Made by a program: the position numbers and the translations under genes | Part shown: positions 7,920 to 56,514 of the stretch, in pieces | Position numbering within the stretch: position 1 is the first letter of the stretch | Layout: each line of letters starts with the position of its first letter | DNA from: a phage | Strand: one strand, 5' to 3' | Length of the DNA: 64,000 nucleotides | Assembly: GCA_028030915.1 (NCBI GenBank) | Contig: GCA_028030915.1_4867.1 | Notes under the pieces: model-generated | Told to the model about the DNA's origin: nothing | The model's database searches: none | Seen by the model: only the letters and a program-made list of their open reading frames with translations

Positions 7920-8462
7920 TTAGAATTTACTAATAGCGAGTGGCTGCATTGGCTCAATCACAATCAGTATTTCTTTCAGACGTGAAACGATATGCTCCCA
8001 GACCTGTGCTTCGAGGTGACGTAGCATGGTGGTGAACTCACCCATGTACATCTCTTTATACTCGTCGCGGTTGAGATGTTCCCACGCTTCTTTCAATGGG
8101 CCTGCTTCCGGTCCAGACATCTTAATCATCATTTCGATGTCCTTCATTTCATCAAAGGCTTTACCGACCTTATCAATAACCTCATCGGTCTTGAGTTCGA
8201 GTGAGAAGCGACCCATCTTAGACTGCAGGAAGCCGTCTTCAATGTCTTCGTCGTTGTATTCGAAACACGCAATACGTTGCGCGAGTTGATGAACTTCATT
8301 TACCGCGATATTGACATACGCTGCAGAGATAAGCCCAGCGAGGTGTTGACGATCGATATTCTTCGGTATCAGATAGTCTTCACACTTACGCTTAAACTCG
8401 AACAACGCCGCTGGAAATATTTCACGAAATTCGTCATCGAGTAAATCAATGAATATTTTCAT
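7920..8462 (-). CDS. hypothetical acidic protein (180 aa)
   Basis: ORF in track; 4-nt overlap with upstream gene. Confidence 0.45.
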   Translation of the reverse strand: MKIFIDLLDDEFREIFPAALFEFKRKCEDYLIPKNIDRQHLAGLISAAYVNIAVNEVHQLAQRIACFEYNDEDIEDGFLQSKMGRFSLELKTDEVIDKVGKAFDEMKDIEMMIKMSGPEAGPLKEAWEHLNRDEYKEMYMGEFTTMLRHLEAQVWEHIVSRLKEILIVIEPMQPLAISKF

Positions 8463-8998
8463 TCAATAGGTTTCCCGTATTTCTCACCGAGGTATAACAA
8501 CTCACGGCGACAGATAGCCAGCACTTTCATTTCTGCTTCACGATACAATTTGGTGATTTTGTCAATGATTGGCTGGTCAACGATATCGGACCATGTTACC
8601 GTGTCCGTAACGTTCGACGTTTGCCCGTTAATGACCACAGCAACATATGTCTCGCCCAGGTTCTCTTGATGTAACCCCGCCAGAGATTCACCAACCTTAT
8701 CAAAGGCTTCACTCAATAAGTCGGTGATTTGGTCCGTCCCTTCTACCAGTTCAAAACGATGGGGATAGTTCAGAATGTTACGCAGCCGCGTGAACATACG
8801 TTCAATAAGCTGATTTACCATATCCCCAGTGTCACAGATAGCCACATCTACGCCTGAACCCATTTCGTCAGACAAACGATTTTCATGGACGGCCAACGCA
8901 TCGTGAAGTTCAAATTCCACGTCTCGTTTTAATCCTAACAGAATTTCATCTAGCTGACGTCTCGACTCCGACAGAGCGAAGTCAATTACGATTTGCAT
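8459..8998 (-). CDS. hypothetical protein (179 aa)
   Basis: ORF in track. Confidence 0.45.
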   Translation of the reverse strand: MQIVIDFALSESRRQLDEILLGLKRDVEFELHDALAVHENRLSDEMGSGVDVAICDTGDMVNQLIERMFTRLRNILNYPHRFELVEGTDQITDLLSEAFDKVGESLAGLHQENLGETYVAVVINGQTSNVTDTVTWSDIVDQPIIDKITKLYREAEMKVLAICRRELLYLGEKYGKPIE

Positions 8999-9008
8999 CT
9001 AATGCTCC

Positions 9009-9416
9009 TTAAAAGTTACTTACCTCGGGCTGCGTATACCAGTATCTGCACGCTACGAGATCCACAACGTTATATTTCAGTTGTCCACCGTGCTGTGACG
9101 TGTCTGCCAATTCATGCGCAAGCTTGTACGCCAAGTCTTCACGGTTGTCGAGGATAAGCAACACAACACGCTGCACCTCATTAAAGATATCCGGTTCACG
9201 TAAACAACTGTAGCGCTCGCTAAGATGCTTAATAACGCCTTTATAAACATCTCCTGGTACAGCAGTGCCATTTTCTGCTACGTGGAATGAAACAAGCACG
9301 ATTTTAATTAAAATCTCGACAACCATGGAGTATATCATTCCACGGTTGCCGTTAATTTCCACATGCTTTAGATACTCTTGCAAGTCCATCAATGACTCGC
9401 TATACACCTTTAACAT
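9009..9416 (-). CDS. hypothetical protein (start moved to internal Met with GAGGTG RBS)
   Basis: The track ORF 9009..9482 overlaps the upstream gene; the Met at 9416 has an RBS and removes the overlap. Confidence 0.4.
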   Translation of the reverse strand: MLKVYSESLMDLQEYLKHVEINGNRGMIYSMVVEILIKIVLVSFHVAENGTAVPGDVYKGVIKHLSERYSCLREPDIFNEVQRVVLLILDNREDLAYKLAHELADTSQHGGQLKYNVVDLVACRYWYTQPEVSNF

Positions 9417-9427
9417 AGCGACCACCT

Positions 9428-9805
9428 CTAGTTGGTTGCCGGCCACACCCCTGGCGATGGGATTGCATCGTATCCACGCCATTTCTTAATCACGACAAGG
9501 TTCGAGCCTGGAAGACCATCTAAATCAAAACCAACAGTAGCAACGACATCAACTTCAGCATCCAGCGATACCTGATCGCGACCCTGTGTTCTGAAATGCG
9601 CAAGAGACACCAGTTTACCGCCAGTAATCGCAGTATCGCGAATAAGACGTGCCATATTGCGCATCTCTACTGTCACTTCTCCACGAATAGCGACACTCAG
9701 CGTTGCTTTATTTAACCAGGCTTCTTGTCCCGGTTCGACAATATAGAGAATCACACCTTCTTTGTAATACTGTTTTACCATCGTTTCAAATTCGTCTTGC
9801 GTCAT
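9428..9805 (-). CDS. hypothetical protein (125 aa)
   Basis: ORF in track. Confidence 0.4.
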   Translation of the reverse strand: MTQDEFETMVKQYYKEGVILYIVEPGQEAWLNKATLSVAIRGEVTVEMRNMARLIRDTAITGGKLVSLAHFRTQGRDQVSLDAEVDVVATVGFDLDGLPGSNLVVIKKWRGYDAIPSPGVWPATN

Positions 9806-9818
9806 TTTAAATACTCCT

Positions 9819-10553
9819 TCAGTAGTTTATTTTCTCAGCGACTTCTTTACGGATGCGACACATCACCACCATCGCACCATTCGGAATTTGGCTCACGCAG
9901 TTATCCGTGTAAAACTTACCTTCACACAGATAAAAGTCCAGACACATGGCATCGGTCAGCTCGTGCCACAGGGTGCCGAAACCATACTGCCAAGGGCCGG
10001 AATGAACGACATCGTAATCGCCATCAGTTATGCCAAATGCGGCAGTAGCGGAAGACCACAGTATTGAGGAAGTGGTATAAGTGTCATACCAGTAACCGAG
10101 CAGACGATGGTTACGACGTATCTCAGCTAACCGCTCGTACATTGGGATGAATACATCTTCCACCTGCGTGACAAAATCAGCCAGCATCAACTTTTCCGTG
10201 AACCACTCGATCCACGCAAAGATTTGTTCTTCAACGTCTTGTTGGCTTAACCCCGTGGCAGTAATGCCTTCTTCGTAGGTGTAACCTTCGTAGACGTCAA
10301 CAACATTAATCTCTACATGTTCTAGCGTGAACAACCGTTCGGTGTTGATGCAGTCGTACATCTCTTGTAACCACGCAGTGAAGACTTCTATACAGACGTT
10401 GATGGCTGTGTACTTGAATTCATCGCGCAGTGGATACCACTGTGGGTTATCCTTTAGTTCGTTCTTCGCGAACGCGGGCCAATGCTTTTCGAACAACGCT
10501 TCAAAGAACTGGGGCGTGAGGTTTAAAAGCACTGGCACTTCGACTTTAAGCAT
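9819..10553 (-). CDS. hypothetical protein (244 aa)
   Basis: ORF in track. Confidence 0.45.
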   Translation of the reverse strand: MLKVEVPVLLNLTPQFFEALFEKHWPAFAKNELKDNPQWYPLRDEFKYTAINVCIEVFTAWLQEMYDCINTERLFTLEHVEINVVDVYEGYTYEEGITATGLSQQDVEEQIFAWIEWFTEKLMLADFVTQVEDVFIPMYERLAEIRRNHRLLGYWYDTYTTSSILWSSATAAFGITDGDYDVVHSGPWQYGFGTLWHELTDAMCLDFYLCEGKFYTDNCVSQIPNGAMVVMCRIRKEVAEKINY

Positions 10554-10606
10554 CGTGAATAAATTCTCCTTAAGGTTACGTCCCTGTAGATAATATCTAT
10601 CTCAGA

Positions 10607-11347
10607 TTACTTTAAGAGATGCAAGAAGCGTGCTGCCTGTTCTGTAAAGTGAAAATACTCGATGGTATCAGGTTCGTCCGAGTGAATGTCATCCGGGTCC
10701 AGCAGGTAGCCCGAGATATCATCCGTTAAAACCCAAGCGTCTCCCTGCAGGAAAATACCCATCGGTTTTTCTACCACGGGCATCACCAAGTCGGAATAAG
10801 AGTTACCTTCTGCAACCTTTACAATGTCTTCACACGGGTCAACAATATACAGGTTGCAGAGACTACGATCTTTAAGACTGCGATGAAACATCGCTCGATC
10901 GTACCAAATAACCTGAGAACAATTATCTTCGTCACCCGCCACATCGACCAACTCTGTCCAGAAACGATGTAAGAACCAGTTCAACGCACCGGTTATTAGC
11001 TCGTTCGGTTTCAGCATTCTAACGTGTTCGTCGTACAACTCTTCCATTGTCCAGATTCGACAATGCTCACGATCGATTGTCGGTAGCGGAGGTATTTGCG
11101 GCGGGACTTGTTTAGGCATCGGTTCATCACATCTTGCGTTGTAACGCGCAATTGTTTCGGTAACCAGCTCTGCCACAACATCACAAGCCGCTTCAAATCC
11201 CCACTTGTACAACACGTCGTAATCTTCCATGGGCGCAGCACCAAACTCACGGTTCGTTGCCATCCACGACATCCATCCGTATTGCTCCACACAGTTAATC
11301 AGACTTTGTGTGTGGAGCGTGAGCGATTCACTCACGACTCGCAACAT
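10607..11347 (-). CDS. hypothetical protein (start set at the internal Met adjacent to the upstream stop)
   Basis: The track ORF 10607..11407 would overlap the RNase H gene by about 60 nt; the Met at 11347 abuts the RNase H stop. Confidence 0.4.
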   Translation of the reverse strand: MLRVVSESLTLHTQSLINCVEQYGWMSWMATNREFGAAPMEDYDVLYKWGFEAACDVVAELVTETIARYNARCDEPMPKQVPPQIPPLPTIDREHCRIWTMEELYDEHVRMLKPNELITGALNWFLHRFWTELVDVAGDEDNCSQVIWYDRAMFHRSLKDRSLCNLYIVDPCEDIVKVAEGNSYSDLVMPVVEKPMGIFLQGDAWVLTDDISGYLLDPDDIHSDEPDTIEYFHFTEQAARFLHLLK

Positions 11348-13671: not shown

Positions 13672-14151
13672 TCATTGCACAAGGCAACTACTTTTGTGCC
13701 GTTCGTAGGCATGATTAAAAGACTCTCTGTCTTCGCGATAGCTGCGAATGAGAGACTTAATCTGTCGTGACAAATCACGACTAATGTCCTGAGGGCTACG
13801 AGAACCAGGGTCGAGATATATCCCGGAGGGTATATCATGAAGAGTGGGGCGAATAAACTCTTCACAAAGCGGTGCGGCCATCGGGGTGCGCCACCCCTTA
13901 GCTTCTGCGTAATTGTTCAACGACTTAGCGTACAGATAAACGTAATAAGCATAAGCGTTCACATCCGCAACAAACATTTTCCCTGCCAACTTTTTCGCCT
14001 CAGGACTGTTCCCACCAGCATAAACTGGTGGGTGTTCTAAAGGACGAAAAGGCCAATCTCCGGTTGAGGAGTAATCTGGGTCTACGTGACGGACGGCTCC
14101 AGGACATCCTGTCAACAATAGCACCAGTATCGCCACCAAAAATAACTTCAT
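13672..14151 (-). CDS. putative lipoprotein (159 aa), lipobox LLTGC
   Basis: N-terminal hydrophobic segment ending LLTGC; located immediately downstream of a membrane-anchored Pro-rich protein. Confidence 0.5.
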   Translation of the reverse strand: MKLFLVAILVLLLTGCPGAVRHVDPDYSSTGDWPFRPLEHPPVYAGGNSPEAKKLAGKMFVADVNAYAYYVYLYAKSLNNYAEAKGWRTPMAAPLCEEFIRPTLHDIPSGIYLDPGSRSPQDISRDLSRQIKSLIRSYREDRESFNHAYERHKSSCLVQ

Positions 14152-18277: not shown

Positions 18278-18871
18278 TTACGCTTCGGCCTCAAAGAACG
18301 GCTGGTTCGGTACCACTGCATATTCGAGCACGAAAAGATGTTCTGGGGCATCTTCTGCTCGCCACAGTTTGTGACACGTTGCCAGTTTTTCCAGGATGGT
18401 CAACCAGCTGAGCTGGCAGAAAGCACGATCGCCGAAGAACAGTTTCTGCAGTGCAATCGACACATCCATATACGCCTGTTTGAAGTCGAGTTCTTTATCG
18501 TAACCCGCCGACTGTCGCCACGTCAGCACGAAGCCTGCTTCGGTTTCGTTAATTGCTGGACGTAAACCACAAATCCACATCAGCGCCAGATTAACGTTCC
18601 AGTCGAATTCGATACCTTCGTCTTCGTCATCACCAAACGCCGCGTTTAACGCATCGTAGAAACCGTGGTTCTCTGCGAACCATTCGCCGTACTCAACGTA
18701 TACCGGTGCTTCGACAGCTTCCCCATCGACTTCACCGATAGGACGCTCTACATAGTTCGGGTTGGTTTGAACGTGTTCCGCACCCGCGCGAATTAATTCG
18801 TAGACATCTTTGGCGGTGATTTGTGCGGCTGTTTTAAGACCTGGATACCAGGGGCGTGTTACGAGTGTCAA
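18278..18871 (-). CDS. hypothetical acidic protein (197 aa)
   Basis: ORF in track; 4-nt overlap with upstream gene. Confidence 0.45.
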   Translation of the reverse strand: MTLVTRPWYPGLKTAAQITAKDVYELIRAGAEHVQTNPNYVERPIGEVDGEAVEAPVYVEYGEWFAENHGFYDALNAAFGDDEDEGIEFDWNVNLALMWICGLRPAINETEAGFVLTWRQSAGYDKELDFKQAYMDVSIALQKLFFGDRAFCQLSWLTILEKLATCHKLWRAEDAPEHLFVLEYAVVPNQPFFEAEA

Positions 18872-19590
18872 AGCAATGCTCCTTTCATGATAGTGTTATT
18901 TGCCAGTAGTGTACCGGCCGCAGGTGATATTTTGGTGTACAGCGTATCCCAGATTTTCTGAAGTTCAGCGACGCGTTGGTCGTGGTCTTCCTTCGCAAAA
19001 GCAAGCTGACGTGTTTCAGCTTTCGGTGGTGTCATTTTCGCACCGTAGAATGCTGCGTCTTTTCGGTAGCTGGCCATCCAGCGTTTCCCGACCGGTGATT
19101 TCTTTTTAATCATCGCAACAGCAGCACCCTCACCGAAGCGGTAGCCTAAAGCGATTTCGGCTGTGCTCGGCTTGCGTTTGAGTTGTTTTGTCAGATGATC
19201 CTCGATGTGTTTCATGTAAACGGCAGCAAGCTGTACAGCATACTTCGGTTTATTAAGGTCCGCATTCTTTGGGATGTTAAGTTGTTTCCCATACAGACGT
19301 ATCATGGAGCGTTTAGTGCCTGTCGTCATTTGGACAACACTACTAGCACTGCTCGATTTATTCTTACCCACGTTTTTATTAAAACGGGATTCACGATAAA
19401 TGGTGGTCGCGAGCATCCCGGCATGTACGCCTTGTTTTCGAGATGCGGTGACGATGAGAGGTTTAATCTCATTGAACTGGTCCTGGATAAGGACGAATTC
19501 TTTTTGGTGTTTGTTACTGGTGGTCTGGTAAGAAGCGTTGCTGTTGAACGTAGTCATTGCTACCAGAAGAAACAAAATGGTGCGAAACAT
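18868..19590 (-). CDS. putative secreted lytic transglycosylase (SLT-like domain)
   Basis: N-terminal signal-like segment MFRTILFLLVAMTTFNSNA; SLT-like motifs ESRFN...SSASSVVQMT and YRFGEGAA. Confidence 0.45.
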   Translation of the reverse strand: MFRTILFLLVAMTTFNSNASYQTTSNKHQKEFVLIQDQFNEIKPLIVTASRKQGVHAGMLATTIYRESRFNKNVGKNKSSSASSVVQMTTGTKRSMIRLYGKQLNIPKNADLNKPKYAVQLAAVYMKHIEDHLTKQLKRKPSTAEIALGYRFGEGAAVAMIKKKSPVGKRWMASYRKDAAFYGAKMTPPKAETRQLAFAKEDHDQRVAELQKIWDTLYTKISPAAGTLLANNTIMKGALL

Positions 19591-25974: not shown

Positions 25975-26007
25975 CAACAAAAAAAGAAGGTAGCCCGTAG
26001 GCTACCT
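25975..26007 (-). terminator. intrinsic terminator (GGTAGCC-CGTA-GGCTACC)
   Basis: Hairpin preceded by an A-run on the plus strand; downstream of the 26015 gene. Confidence 0.4.
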
Positions 26008-26014
26008 CTCGTAT

Positions 26015-26515
26015 TTACAGCCCCATATGCATAAGGGAAATGATTGGGACCTTACGGCCACGAATCATTGCATACGGTTCGTACATTTGTGCGTTAGTTT
26101 CGAATAACTCACAGGCCGGAATGCGGTCACCGGTAGAGAGTTGCAAGACTTCAATTTGGTCGCCCCAGAAGTTATTCACCAATACATGGTCGACAGTGTT
26201 GTCTTCACGACCTTCAGGGGTGTTGCAATAAGTGGCTGCAGCGTACCAGCCCTTACGGTATACTTCATAACCCGCATGAAGCATCCGGTAGTACGGACGT
26301 AGTTGTGGGGCATTCAACGCAGCATCTAGCCACTCGCTGTGAATGCTGTTAATCAATACGGTCGCTTCTTCTGGCCAGTCGGTGCGGTTTAGGGTTAACT
26401 CGCCTAACAGCTTTAACTTCCAGCCAGTGGAAAGAATAGCGCGGGTACGTTCGGGATTGACGTTCATCTGAGTAAAGAAAGTAGAACGGGTATCGTCGAG
26501 AATGTTCATGTTCAT
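26015..26515 (-). CDS. hypothetical protein (start set at internal Met with AAGGA RBS)
   Basis: The track ORF extends to 26581 through a hairpin region; the Met at 26515 has a properly spaced RBS. Confidence 0.4.
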   Translation of the reverse strand: MNMNILDDTRSTFFTQMNVNPERTRAILSTGWKLKLLGELTLNRTDWPEEATVLINSIHSEWLDAALNAPQLRPYYRMLHAGYEVYRKGWYAAATYCNTPEGREDNTVDHVLVNNFWGDQIEVLQLSTGDRIPACELFETNAQMYEPYAMIRGRKVPIISLMHMGL

Positions 26516-26644
26516 TTGCATAATCCTTACGAGTAATAGTCGATTAAAAAGGACCCTGCGGCTAAGTGTTGGGGATATCACCGCAGGGCCAAAGTGAGAT
26601 GGGTCGTCATCTCACGTTATAACATCTGTCTGAAAACTTTTCGG

Positions 26645-27028
26645 TTACTGGTCGAGCGCTACTGAACCACGCACCACCCCTTGCTGTTCAATAACCAGGA
26701 GGCGTTGTTTGGTTTTCGTATTGTAAGCGAGCGACGCGCGAAGCGTCGGGTCGCACGTTATTGTCTCTACTGGCACAATCTCTTGTGCCTTTGAGTTCAA
26801 CAGAAAGTAGTAACCTGCCGGACAAGTTTCCTCGCCCTTTGCGTGGACTAGGATGTACTCGTCGTGCCGGCTGACTTCTTCACATCTACCATCGTCGCCA
26901 GTACAGACTTCGAACGAAGGCGGGTTGTACTGATACGGTGTGCCTGGTAGTAAATCTTCTACGCTAGTTGTAGCTGAAGCAGAAGCGGTAAAGAACACCG
27001 CCACGATAATACCCATAAATCCACGCAT
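26645..27028 (-). CDS. small secreted protein with paired cysteines (127 aa)
   Basis: Signal-peptide-like N-terminus MRGFMGIIVAVFFTASASA; four Cys in the mature part. Confidence 0.45.
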   Translation of the reverse strand: MRGFMGIIVAVFFTASASATTSVEDLLPGTPYQYNPPSFEVCTGDDGRCEEVSRHDEYILVHAKGEETCPAGYYFLLNSKAQEIVPVETITCDPTLRASLAYNTKTKQRLLVIEQQGVVRGSVALDQ

Positions 27029-27041
27029 GTTGTTTCCTTAC

Positions 27042-27452
27042 TTAAAAGTCGAGTTTATTGATGCCTACATTTTTCTTAATCGTAGGGTCATACATGATAA
27101 CCGTCAGGGCATTGTCGCCTGGGTCGCGTGTAAACTCAGCAACGGCTTCACCACTGCAGGCTTGGTTATCATTATAGTTCATGGATTCGGCTTGCCCGGT
27201 TGCCATGTTAATAACCCCGTATTCAGGGTCGCCACATGCGACACCGCCCATCGTTTTCACTAACAGGTAACGGTTGTTATCGGACATCGCAACGATCTGG
27301 CAGCTACCGCCTTGTACGTCAGAGTTCTGGCACCAGAACGGCCCGCCGTATTCGTGATCGTTAACAACTTTTGGTAACTCGATACTCCCAGCGCGAGCGA
27401 AGAAGCTAATGGCTAGAGTAGCAAGTAAAACTGGTAATAAAAAATGTTTCAT
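27042..27452 (-). CDS. small secreted protein, PFWC-motif paralog (136 aa)
   Basis: Signal-like MKHFLLPVLLATLAISFFARA; GPFWCQNSDVQGGSC. Confidence 0.45.
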   Translation of the reverse strand: MKHFLLPVLLATLAISFFARAGSIELPKVVNDHEYGGPFWCQNSDVQGGSCQIVAMSDNNRYLLVKTMGGVACGDPEYGVINMATGQAESMNYNDNQACSGEAVAEFTRDPGDNALTVIMYDPTIKKNVGINKLDF

Positions 27453-27474
27453 AATAGCACCTCAATTTTTTGAG

Positions 27475-27966
27475 TTATTCTGAATAGTCGATTGTTTTGA
27501 TGGTTTCCATACCGTAGTACATAGCGATGGAGGCCAGAGTTTTGGTATCCGGTCGCTGTACAAAACCGGCTCTGAAATCTTTGCTGCAAATTTTCTCCAC
27601 TGATAGTTCATCACGATTAGGGATAAGCCATAACGCGTCACCATTGTGACGGTCGACTGCACCCCACCAACCACCTGGGCAATCTTTATCGCCCGGACGG
27701 TGTACGATAGCGACACGACCGTTGAAGGATATGTCAACTACACGACACTGTTTCTTAAGCAGCTTACGCGCATTGCACCAGAACGGCTTATCATTAAGAT
27801 TGATGGTGCGGGTATATGCTGGAATGCTGCCGTTAATACTGCCCTGGAACCCGCTGAATTCGTCAGCGCGTGCCTTAGAAATCCGTAGCCCAACAACAAC
27901 TGCCATCAACAGCACAGTAAAAAGCACCACTTTGGCCAAGTGGCGATTAACGTTATTGCATTTCAT
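27475..27966 (-). CDS. small secreted or membrane-anchored protein, PFWC-motif paralog
   Basis: Start set at MKCNNV; hydrophobic VVLFTVLLMAVVVGL; KPFWCNARKLLKKQC. Confidence 0.4.
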   Translation of the reverse strand: MKCNNVNRHLAKVVLFTVLLMAVVVGLRISKARADEFSGFQGSINGSIPAYTRTINLNDKPFWCNARKLLKKQCRVVDISFNGRVAIVHRPGDKDCPGGWWGAVDRHNGDALWLIPNRDELSVEKICSKDFRAGFVQRPDTKTLASIAMYYGMETIKTIDYSE

Positions 27967-28354
27967 TTTTGATATCTCCACGATTGAGGGTGATGCGACC
28001 GACGAGCACATCGTTGTGATAAAAGCTCACAGCAACCAAATTCGGTAATTCCAGTGGCGATACACTGACCGAGGTGACTTTTGGTTGATTGCACGATATG
28101 TCGATTAACCGCTGATACATTTTCAATTTCTTATCAGCGATAACCAGCCCTGTGCAGTTCTTACCGTCCGTCAGTCTGTAGATTTGTAACTGTTCGACCT
28201 CACGCATCAGTTCCGGTTTTTCATTCGGTGCAATGCCATAATCCGAATCAGCTGATGTGTATTCAGTCACGTCTGGCTTATCGAAAGCATAAGTTGCTGC
28301 AATACCACATGCGGCCAGAACTACTACTGCTTGTAAGAACTTCTTGATAGTCAT
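27953..28354 (-). CDS. small secreted protein (133 aa)
   Basis: Signal-like MTIKKFLQAVVVLAACGIAATYA. Confidence 0.4.
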   Translation of the reverse strand: MTIKKFLQAVVVLAACGIAATYAFDKPDVTEYTSADSDYGIAPNEKPELMREVEQLQIYRLTDGKNCTGLVIADKKLKMYQRLIDISCNQPKVTSVSVSPLELPNLVAVSFYHNDVLVGRITLNRGDIKNEMQ

Positions 28355-28374
28355 GTTTTACTCTATAGTCGATT

Positions 28375-28408
28375 GGTTTAAAAAAGAATAGGCTACCCGA
28401 GGGTAGCC
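28375..28408 (-). terminator. intrinsic terminator (GGCTACC-CGAG-GGTAGCC)
   Basis: Hairpin with upstream A-run on the plus strand; downstream of the 28460 gene. Confidence 0.4.
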
Positions 28409-28459
28409 AGTTGAGTTAATCTCTTAACTCTCACCTAAGTAATATATATCTGAGATATT

Positions 28460-29056
28460 TTACAATGTGAACGTTGTGTTAAGAATACGAAAACCCAATG
28501 CTCGCTTAGCGATTTGCATATTTGCAGGCGTGAAGTCCACCAGTTTGATTTGAACGATCGATAAATCGTAAAGCTTGTGAAGCACTTCGATTTTGTGTCG
28601 CCAATCTGTTTTTTGGTGCAGCTCTATCGTCGTTGGTATCTCGCCTAGTCTCGGCAACTGTGCTCCAAGTAAACGATGATGGACTTTACCGTTTATAGTT
28701 GGGGTGCCTTCCGTGACCATCAGTCGCGCATCGATGTAGTTATTTCGCTTAGCGTACTCCATAAAAGTTTTGACATTTATCTTTTCCTCGTATAGAATGC
28801 TGCGAAAGTATTCGTAAATGATGTGTCCTGCCTCCCTACCGCTTTCCGAGTCTGGAATAACCTTATCGATGAAAATCGCAGAGACCACTTCGCTCCCACG
28901 CGAATGCATTGTAATGACCCTATCCCCGTGCTCTGCGGCGGTTAATAATCCACTCACATCAAGCCCCACCGGAAACAAGCCACGACTACGCATTACGTGC
29001 AGGTCTTCTAACTTGTTCTCTTGCAGTCGTAAAATACGTTCTGTCATATACCACAC
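28460..29056 (-). CDS. hypothetical protein (198 aa)
   Basis: ORF in track. Confidence 0.4.
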   Translation of the reverse strand: MWYMTERILRLQENKLEDLHVMRSRGLFPVGLDVSGLLTAAEHGDRVITMHSRGSEVVSAIFIDKVIPDSESGREAGHIIYEYFRSILYEEKINVKTFMEYAKRNNYIDARLMVTEGTPTINGKVHHRLLGAQLPRLGEIPTTIELHQKTDWRHKIEVLHKLYDLSIVQIKLVDFTPANMQIAKRALGFRILNTTFTL

Positions 29057-33865: not shown

Positions 33866-34075
33866 ATGAGCATTCGTGAAATCACCGCAGGCAGCGACGT
33901 TTCTGGTCTGGTAGAAGCAGGCACCGTTCAGGTTTCTGGACTGAGCACCGTTACCGAAGTTACCGAAGCGCTGGCTAAGAAAGCCGAAGCTGAAGGCGGC
34001 GTAGCATTTAAAGTTACCGCTTGCGGCGGCAACAACAAAATGTTCGGCAACGCCATCTATTACGTAAACGCGTAA
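33866..34075 (+). CDS. small BhsA/YdgH-like (DUF1471-like) protein, no signal peptide (69 aa)
   Basis: VQVSGLSTVTEVTEALAKKAEAEGGVAFKVTACGGNNKMFGNAIYY resembles the DUF1471 pattern (S-G-ST-L-D...AKKA...GA-Y-I......GNN...G-A-IYK); GGAGA RBS; strong terminator follows. Confidence 0.5.
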   Translation: MSIREITAGSDVSGLVEAGTVQVSGLSTVTEVTEALAKKAEAEGGVAFKVTACGGNNKMFGNAIYYVNA

Positions 34076-56022: not shown

Positions 56023-56514
56023 ATGAAACGTCTATTTATCGTATTCGCGATTATAAACCTGTTGGCCGGTTGTGTTCAGTCGCCAAGCAACATAGGACAA
56101 TTTAGCGCCACACCAGTAAAGAATCACGACTTGGTGATTTATACATGCACAGGGACGCAGGAGAAGTTTGTAGACTACCGTCCGGTACTGGACAACCTAC
56201 AAATGATGCCGCGGTCAGTAACAGTAATGGATGTGGGTGCAAACTGGGTAGCAGCGTGGGACGGTGGCAAACTAGAGTCACCGATGATGTTTAAAGATAC
56301 AATTGGCAAAATCGACGGGAATGTTAATACCACCACAGGTGAGCGTTATTACCGTATTAATAAAACCGTAAACGATAGCCCCACTTACTCTTTTTCGGAT
56401 GTGAACCCGTATACCGGCGAAGGTAAAGGGATGACATTCTTTCGCTGCAGCAGCGGGTTTATCGGTGAAGTTCCTACTCCGATTACGATTGTTCCGTTAG
56501 AAGAAAATAAATAA
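56023..56514 (+). CDS. putative lipoprotein (163 aa), lipobox LLAGC
   Basis: N-terminal MKRLFIVFAIINLLAGC; own terminator downstream. Confidence 0.55.
   Translation: MKRLFIVFAIINLLAGCVQSPSNIGQFSATPVKNHDLVIYTCTGTQEKFVDYRPVLDNLQMMPRSVTVMDVGANWVAAWDGGKLESPMMFKDTIGKIDGNVNTTTGERYYRINKTVNDSPTYSFSDVNPYTGEGKGMTFFRCSSGFIGEVPTPITIVPLEENK

Follow-up and report, generated by a model that had tools for sequence, protein, structure and literature searches.

What might a jumbo phage gain from four adjacent genes for small cysteine-containing proteins that appear to leave the cytoplasm? The question is raised by positions 26645-28354 of a 64,000-nucleotide stretch of contig GCA_028030915.1_4867.1 (NCBI GenBank assembly GCA_028030915.1; hereafter the window), where, as the original prediction described, four consecutive open reading frames (ORFs) lie on the minus strand. 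They are labelled A, B, C and D here and are transcribed in the order D, C, B, A. The genes are already deposited and are clustered in the PHROG catalogue as four unrelated families of unknown function (5248, 8968, 17072 and 9424). New here is the proposal, drawn from sequences and structural models, that A-D form one family with predicted export signals and disulfides, a fold resembling propeller blades, a conserved operon, and relatives in the yfjS slot of Escherichia coli islands.

Predicted export, cysteines and predicted fold of the array proteins

The window is assigned to an SPN3US-like jumbo phage of the genus Seoulvirus: its region 26000-29000 has 96-98.6% DNA identity with phages of this type that infect Salmonella and E. 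coli, and the four ORFs themselves have 96.5-98.6%. In SPN3US the orthologues of A, B, C and D are gp183, gp182, gp181 and gp180, annotated as hypothetical proteins SPN3US_0183, 0182, 0181 and 0180, and A-D share 96-100% identity with deposited phage genes. Full-length matches to PHROG families 5248, 8968, 17072 and 9424 were obtained for A, B, C and D at E-values of 3e-44, 1e-57, 3e-85 and 3e-53, respectively. Downstream of the array in transcription order, SPN3US carries gp184, gp185 and the essential SbcC-like gp186. No further paralogues of the array were found elsewhere in the 64-kb window.

All four ORFs begin with a basic n-region, an uncharged hydrophobic core and a small-x-small site, which bears out the signal-peptide-like starts noted originally. 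These signal peptides were judged by rule-based features, by conservation in orthologues, and by the detached low-confidence N-terminal helices of the structural models. The best 15-residue Kyte-Doolittle mean of the hydrophobic core is 2.05-3.05 across A-D. The n/h/c layout and the A-x-A-type sites are kept in orthologues from four genera and from metagenomes at low identity of the segment itself; gene C orthologues, for instance, retain AHA/DEF or ANA/N sites (a slash marks the predicted cut). A lenient signal-peptide heuristic passes 9 of the 67 window ORFs, and since four of these nine are the consecutive A-D, with features kept in four genera, a chance origin is unlikely. The four proteins are almost certainly exported, by predicted entry into the Sec pathway and cleavage by signal peptidase I.

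It is very unlikely that the proteins are not soluble but stay in the membrane, either as uncleaved signal anchors facing the periplasm from the inner membrane or, in the case of D, as a lipoprotein. The core of gene C is long and very hydrophobic (15-residue mean 3.05) and is followed by RISK before the putative site, and the sequence LAAC/G of D fits a lipobox; however, A-x-A-type sites are kept in orthologues of all four proteins, and Cys16 of D is absent or in a non-lipobox setting in orthologues such as those of pEa_SNUABM_29, Wellington and phiEaH2. D was rejected as a lipoprotein in general because its lipobox-like LAAC/G, present in the window copy, is not conserved. No lipobox was found in A, B or C.

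The mature regions contain four cysteines each in A, B and C and two in D, in agreement with the two to four counted originally. Outside the mature part there is one more cysteine in C (residue 3, in the n-region of the signal peptide) and one in D (residue 16, in its hydrophobic core). The PFWC...C motif described as common to two of the ORFs is found in B (GPFWCQNSDVQGGSC) and C (KPFWCNARKLLKKQC) with the spacing PFWC-x9-C, and gene A carries the motif CPAGYYFLLN. In the full alignments of four-Cys proteins Cys1, Cys2 and Cys4 are invariant; Cys3 is missing from a single sequence (P0019) and is shifted a few residues towards the N-terminus in one subtype. Cys1 and Cys2 are jointly absent from the D-type proteins and from the E. 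coli lipoproteins YfjS and YafY (considered below), which retain the other pair. Because the D-type proteins lose Cys1 and Cys2 together, we infer disulfides Cys1-Cys2 and Cys3-Cys4 in A, B and C, and a single one in D that matches Cys3-Cys4.

The original prediction took all four proteins for paralogues. For A, B and C this is clear. B and C share 27% identity over 90 residues (BLASTP, E 2e-7), A and C are matched at E 2e-4, the PHROG families of the three cross-hit reciprocally, and the four cysteines stay in register in an alignment of 19 sequences drawn from four genera. For D the relationship is marginal in sequence and its standing is that of a probable paralogue. D-type sequence-to-profile scores against the four-Cys family are marginal, and in such a sequence-only test the window copy of D scores no higher than shuffled sequences; its paralogy therefore rests on profile-profile, fold and context evidence. 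Profile-profile comparison by hhalign gave P 6e-5 (7 versus 19 sequences) and P 4e-4 (25 versus 58), both alignments having the same register and placing D's two cysteines on Cys3 and Cys4. D is thus probably an ancient and much more diverged paralogue of A, B and C, as judged from sequence profiles and models.

AlphaFold models were obtained for B, with a predicted local distance difference test score (pLDDT) of 86 and above 90 in the mature part, and for D (pLDDT 78). Both contain seven strands in identical order, four and then three, after an N-terminal helix that is of low confidence and detached from the folded domain. The top-60 lists of structural matches of B and D have at least 20 chains in common, nearly all of them beta-propellers. 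The best match of both models is WDR19 (8bbf_A); both also match Pizza3 (3ww8) and the propeller lectin 6gxs, B alone matches 6r5x, and the D profile weakly matches WD40 designs. In the models the 4+3-strand antiparallel meanders superpose on two consecutive blades of WD40/PD40-type propellers or of the designed Pizza and WRAP fragments. The models thus strongly support all-beta domains of about 105-130 residues that resemble two beta-propeller blades. In contrast to WD40/PD40 propellers, the array proteins lack the Pfam repeat signature and add disulfides and a short helix, and we did not find in them the four or more ring-closing blades with repeat signature by which such propellers are recognised.

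The pairwise alignment and structure prediction proposed as checks therefore both returned similarity, in B-C and A-C and in the shared strand order of the B and D models. The opposite outcome, with neither signal peptides nor likeness at the fold level, was not obtained, since signal peptides are predicted by rule and the paralogy of A, B and C can be demonstrated.

If each protein contributes two blades, three or four subunits could close a six- or eight-bladed ring in the periplasm, possibly a platform for binding glycans or proteins. RSL-type lectins are propellers assembled from two-blade fragments. The two-blade appearance of the B and D models, their common match to the lectin 6gxs, and a fixed set of paralogues retained together (three in Machinavirus, four elsewhere) are consistent with such a hetero-oligomer. 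We nevertheless regard it as quite unlikely: the models are confident as compact monomers, the island homologues occur singly or in pairs, and in one divergent phage contig two family copies are split by unrelated genes. The more specific form, in which the four paralogues would not be redundant binders but the parts of a single periplasmic hetero-oligomeric propeller (eight blades in Seoulvirus, Erskinevirus and Wellingtonvirus, six in Machinavirus) that binds an Enterobacterales-specific envelope component and has YfjS and YafY as single-subunit relatives, has a slighter chance still. If true, it would parallel in nature the propellers that experimenters have built from fragments of two blades.

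Distribution, selection and relatives on islands

The family was sought by tblastn against 50,697 phage records, by two profile searches against 5.8 billion proteins, in IMG/VR, and by an exhaustive hidden Markov model (HMM) search of 1.84 billion cluster representatives with E-values up to 1e-3. The exhaustive search gave 34 cluster hits, a few of which are spurious repeats, and a structure search of BFVD returned family members only. Three long HMM matches (P0044, P0056 and P0057) were rejected as low-complexity or repeat proteins. Phage members are confined to genomes of about 240 kb that resemble SPN3US, namely Seoulvirus, Erskinevirus, Machinavirus, Wellingtonvirus and uncultured relatives. 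These searches strongly support a tiny family, limited by sequence to SPN3US-like jumbo phages of Enterobacterales and CP4-57-like integrative islands.

The order of the array is constant: the D-type gene comes first, followed by two or three four-Cys genes and then by the gp184/gp185/SbcC block, from which the array is separated in Wellingtonvirus by one unrelated 126-residue gene. The array comprises three paralogues in Machinavirus and four in the other genera. A-type and D-type genes are present in all four genera and the B-type in three, the C-type occurs in Seoulvirus and Erskinevirus, and an extra type is found in Wellingtonvirus. In relatives infecting Erwinia and in pEa_SNUABM_29, the D-type gene is directly preceded by an extra conserved ORF of 79-83 residues (MELIIAD...RYRVIYCS...), which neither the window nor SPN3US has. 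In records LR535901-LR535917 (Salmonella phages SPFM1, 5-10, 12, 14, 15 and 20) the region breaks up into 4-39 short alignments and its proteins are fragmented or frameshifted, which looks like a sequence-quality problem rather than biology.

The periplasmic function had been called diversifying, and this part of the original prediction found no support: the paralogues are ancient, their order is fixed in four genera, and ratios of nonsynonymous to synonymous substitution rates (dN/dS) are low. Relative to SPN3US these ratios are 0.10 for D, 0.15 for C, 0.05 for B and 0 for A, the last with three synonymous and zero nonsynonymous changes, and they are similar to those of flanking genes. The array is under purifying selection. 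Between genera its genes are conserved as well as or better than gp177-179 and gp184-185; identities to phiEaH2 are 51% (D), 43% (C), 61% (B) and 56% (A), compared with 41% for gp184 and 43% for gp185. Machinavirus retains D, B and A, whereas gp177, gp179, gp184 and gp185 are undetected there and gp176 and gp178 have only weak or fragmentary matches. Diversifying selection was rejected on the dN/dS range of 0-0.15 and on conservation at least equal to that of the flanking genes, a pattern contrary to that of a rapidly diversifying cassette.

Of the 34 clusters, two fall in CP4-57-like islands of enterobacterial chromosomes. One is a chromosomal member of 150 residues in E. coli (P0060, WP_000734321), which shares with gene C 25% identity over 157 residues (BLASTP, E 5e-14) with all four cysteines aligned. 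Of 5,426 complete E. coli genomes, 92 contain DNA near-identical to P0060, as does one Klebsiella megaplasmid. The gene order of its CP4-57-like island is GTPase, WYL/HTH regulator, P0060, a second secreted protein, DUF932, antirestriction, RadC and YeeU/CbtA; in CP4-57 of E. coli K-12 it is yfjP, yfjQ, yfjR, ypjK, yfjS and yfjT. The second secreted protein is an orthologue of YfjT (49% identity). Flanked by this orthologue and by a YfjR-like WYL regulator, P0060 thus occupies the position of yfjS. In CP4-type islands, the space that separates the YfjR-like regulator from the DUF932/antirestriction genes is a slot for exchangeable secreted cargo, as seen on comparing E. coli NZ_CP031215.1 with K-12.

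The other, a B-like member (P0052), is encoded in a different CP4-57-like island and adjoins a secreted protein of 295 residues (locus L057, 4060-4947). The latter has eight cysteines, the last four spaced 7, 21 and 23 as in the A-type, and weakly matches both family profiles (E 3e-4 and 0.03). This protein appears to be a longer one whose C-terminus carries a predicted family domain.

The occupant of the slot in K-12, YfjS, and its relative YafY (PF20494; CP4-57 and CP4-6, respectively) resemble the phage proteins in being small exported proteins of Enterobacterales mobile elements with a domain of about 110 residues. Their cysteine pair aligns with phage Cys3/Cys4 and with the two cysteines of D, a strand motif around the first cysteine is common to YfjS (DGCEGGSYYYLVD) and gene A (ETCPAGYYFLLN), and hhalign matches a C-terminal G-R-[IL] strand of YfjS/YafY (HDGKLMGRLLI) with one of D (HNDVLVGRITL). 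Against the four-Cys profile YfjS scores 11.1 bits, which 0 of 2000 shuffles reach, and against the D profile 4.2 bits, which 8 of 2000 reach. Comparison by hhalign gave P 7e-4 and 0.013 with the cysteine pair aligned; the 29 YfjS loci from bacterial genomes are 87-100% identical, too uniform to sharpen the YfjS profile. In contrast to the phage proteins, which have signal-peptidase-I sites, form an array and, in A, B and C, carry two cysteine pairs, YfjS and YafY are inner-membrane lipoproteins (lipobox, Asp at +2) encoded by single genes and with one mature pair. The PF20494 model (gathering score 27 bits) scores YfjS at 229 and YafY at 215 bits; it does not match the four window proteins, and it matches 2 of 20 four-Cys members (best E 0.12) and 0 of 18 D-type members. 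Because this model misses the phage proteins, we grade the tie as probable remote homology and not as membership: the phage family would probably be a distant offshoot of the YfjS/YafY lipoprotein domain.

This tie raises the alternative that A-D modulate envelope stress, engaging Cpx or another sensor and reprogramming or silencing the host envelope response in the manner of YafY. According to a passage of PMC6538781 that cites Miyadai et al. 2004, YafY is one of only two among 90 overproduced E. coli lipoproteins that activate Cpx, and this effect, the remote similarity to YfjS/YafY, and the family member in the yfjS slot fit such a role. However, the homology is weak and the Pfam model misses the phage proteins, the Cpx effect was that of an overproduced inner-membrane-anchored lipoprotein whereas the phage proteins are predicted to be soluble, and a yafY deletion had no phenotype in lipoprotein-trafficking stress (PMC6538781). 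We therefore consider modulation of envelope stress unlikely.

The probable transcription unit and its surroundings

The array looks like one tightly packed transcription unit, D-C-B-A, with predicted hairpin/T-run terminators at both ends; this follows from the tight spacing and from the flanking hairpins, the downstream one of which recurs in four genera. D and C overlap by 14 nucleotides, and the gaps are 22 nucleotides between C and B and 13 between B and A. An alternative ATG for gene C lies upstream at 28011; it would give 178 residues and an overlap of 59 nucleotides with D, and its ribosome-binding site is no better.

The upstream hairpin was found by a terminator scan; it is GC-rich, and its predicted RNA fold has -23.5 kcal/mol (z -3.4 versus shuffles). 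For the downstream stretch the values are -34 kcal/mol and z -4.5. The downstream element, GGCCCT...stem...AGGG(T/C)CCTTTTT, recurs in Seoulvirus, Erskinevirus, Machinavirus and Wellingtonvirus at the equivalent position; its stems differ among the four genera yet are complementary. A further terminator-like hairpin with a T-rich tail (27925-27945, minus strand) lies just 3' of the D stop codon, inside the part of C that encodes the signal peptide; it could attenuate read-through from D to C or be due to chance.

The exact 10-mer AATCGACTAT has only three copies in the 64 kb, all on the minus strand and within 2 kb. A degenerate copy (ACTCGACTTT) precedes A, related motifs are found upstream of the D-type genes in phiEaH2 and pEa_SNUABM_29, and others precede gp184 in other genera. 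The copies may serve local regulation or be left over from the tandem duplications. As a general phage promoter motif the 10-mer was rejected, since with two mismatches allowed it is not enriched (53 found, 57 expected). The sequence TATATTAC occurs once in the window, no recurrent AT-rich 9-mer was found there, and a sigma-70 promoter scan gave nothing scoring above shuffles.

Elsewhere in the window, two ORFs encode candidate lipoproteins, one at 13672-14151 (minus strand, 159 residues, LLTG/C) and one at 56023-56514 (plus strand, 163 residues, LLAG/C); neither has a Pfam match and both are unrelated to the array. A 69-residue ORF at 33866-34075 (plus strand) corresponds to an SPN3US gene annotated by RefSeq as DUF1471, a family of small enterobacterial periplasmic stress proteins; the window copy has no signal peptide.

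Coordinates of the array genes and associated features (window positions unless a locus is named; a slash marks the predicted cleavage site)
Feature	Position	Strand	Remarks
Gene D (gp180 orthologue)	27953-28354	-	133 aa; first gene of unit; mature Cys 67/88
Gene C (gp181 orthologue)	27475-27966	-	163 aa from start annotated in SPN3US; mature Cys 64/74/96/127
Gene B (gp182 orthologue)	27042-27452	-	136 aa; mature Cys 41/51/73/99
Gene A (gp183 orthologue)	26645-27028	-	127 aa; last gene of unit; mature Cys 42/49/69/92
Signal peptide of D	residues 1-23, nt 28354-28286	-	predicted cleavage TYA/FDK
Signal peptide of C	residues 1-34, nt 27966-27865	-	probable cleavage ARA/DEF; long n-region, strong hydrophobic core
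Signal peptide of B	residues 1-21, nt 27452-27390	-	predicted cleavage ARA/GSI
Signal peptide of A	residues 1-19, nt 27028-26972	-	predicted cleavage ASA/TTS
Terminator-like hairpin GGCTACCC-TCGG-GGGTAGCC with T-run	28381-28408	-	between gp179 orthologue and D; putative upstream boundary
Two hairpins 3' of gene A	26615-26594, 26590-26552 (element 26546-26615)	-	second followed by TCCTTTTT; putative downstream boundary
AATCGACTAT copy 1	28365-28374	-	11 nt upstream of D ATG
AATCGACTAT copy 2	27484-27493	-	32 nt upstream of B ATG; within last C codons (T-I-D-Y)
AATCGACTAT copy 3	26536-26545	-	just past terminator, upstream of annotated start of gp184 orthologue (26515)
Extra 79-83-aa ORF, locus L003	2333-2572		
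Extra 79-83-aa ORF, locus L004	2344-2583		
Extra 79-83-aa ORF, locus L005	2848-3099		
Extra 79-83-aa ORF, locus L006	2761-3006		
Cargo slot, locus L012 (E. coli NZ_CP031215.1)	8180-9177		four-Cys member and YfjT orthologue
Cargo slot, locus L013 (K-12 CP4-57)	9446-10616		YpjK, YfjS, YfjT

Possible roles in the host envelope

As the best explanation of the array, we propose that the D-C-B-A products would be exported, fold in the oxidising periplasm and be oxidised by the Dsb system, and that the four proteins would act there as stoichiometric binders that bind or block envelope targets. Such binding or blocking would protect the infected cell during the long latent period of a jumbo phage; example targets could be the penetration or muralytic machinery of superinfecting phages and other periplasm-acting agents. 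A binder role is favoured because the proteins have no catalytic signature, the paralogue types are kept separately under purifying selection, and both carriers are mobile elements that benefit from envelope control. Taken as a whole, this explanation has in our judgement somewhat less than an even chance of being right. Envelope protection on its own, by exclusion or by blocking of periplasm-acting attack, is a tentative reading, with the chances clearly against it. The roles put forward originally (superinfection exclusion, receptor masking, and inhibition of periplasmic factors) are plausible, though no result singles out any one of them.

The T4 proteins Sp (spackle) and Imm, T5 Llp, and Cor are phage exclusion proteins of the periplasm or envelope. 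Like the array products, they are small proteins of virulent phages sent to the envelope of the infected cell, and the likeness is a functional analogy only: A-D have no such Pfam or PHROG match, and fold comparison gave propeller blades only. Searches of Pfam (E up to 1), NCBIfam and functional PHROGs returned no Imm/Sp, Llp/Cor, holin/antiholin/spanin or Ivy/MliC/Pli family. No coiled-coil or proline-rich spanin architecture was found in A-D, whose domains are globular and all-beta, and PADLOC models matched neither A-D nor the E. coli homologue.

Several observations weigh against a protective four-protein unit in the periplasm. Every homologue is annotated as 'hypothetical', and among the families just named, as among defence and anti-defence families, including exclusion proteins and lysozyme inhibitors, no match was obtained. 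The strong conservation and the fixed set of paralogues suit a housekeeping role at least as well as exclusion. The window's D fares no better than shuffles against the four-Cys profile, and the signal peptides were predicted by rules and not by a trained predictor. The product of gene C could also remain membrane-anchored, because Arg and Lys lie between its hydrophobic core and the putative cleavage site.

High conservation would suit a core role in the life cycle, and the proteins might regulate the phage's own lysis as periplasmic inhibitors or chaperones that restrain an exported cell-wall enzyme in the style of immunity proteins. Tandem small disulfide-bonded periplasmic beta proteins resemble arrays of immunity proteins or inhibitors, and the same window encodes a signal-peptide-bearing SLT-domain transglycosylase (18868-19590). 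We consider this role improbable, as the array lies about 7 kb from the SLT gene with no recognisable holin or spanin adjoining, resembles neither antiholins nor spanins nor known lysozyme inhibitors in sequence, and has island homologues without such an enzyme adjoining. The SLT ORF itself (minus strand, 240 residues) starts with a signal-peptide-like segment (MFRTILFLLVAMTTFNSNA/SY) and contains a Pfam SLT domain that exceeds the gathering score (E 2e-6). Its product is a candidate muralytic enzyme, either exported or held by a signal anchor, and may be the endolysin.

The same conservation would suit components of the virion or of its assembly, and many hypothetical proteins of SPN3US are virion parts. 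Sec export, however, would take the proteins off the assembly route in the cytoplasm and phage nucleus, homologues reside on non-phage islands, and gp180-183 are unmentioned in the main texts and some supplements of the SPN3US virion and essential-gene literature. A virion role in place of a host-directed one is therefore extremely unlikely.

The preferred reading, of exported periplasmic binders, concerns a small family and a finding that is descriptive. Work on nucleus-forming jumbo phages has centred on the cytoplasm, with the phage nucleus, the early infection vesicle and the tubulin spindle. The array is a conserved operon under purifying selection whose products are predicted to be directed the opposite way, to the periplasm, and no paper discussing these products was found. 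Should their role be to control superinfection, envelope stress or lysis, they would provide a handle on a neglected side of jumbo-phage biology; they also bear on the use of SPN3US-like phages against Salmonella and Erwinia. The link to islands would give the uncharacterised K-12 lipoproteins YfjS and YafY their first outside relatives, and it suggests that the phage and island proteins may share an envelope target.

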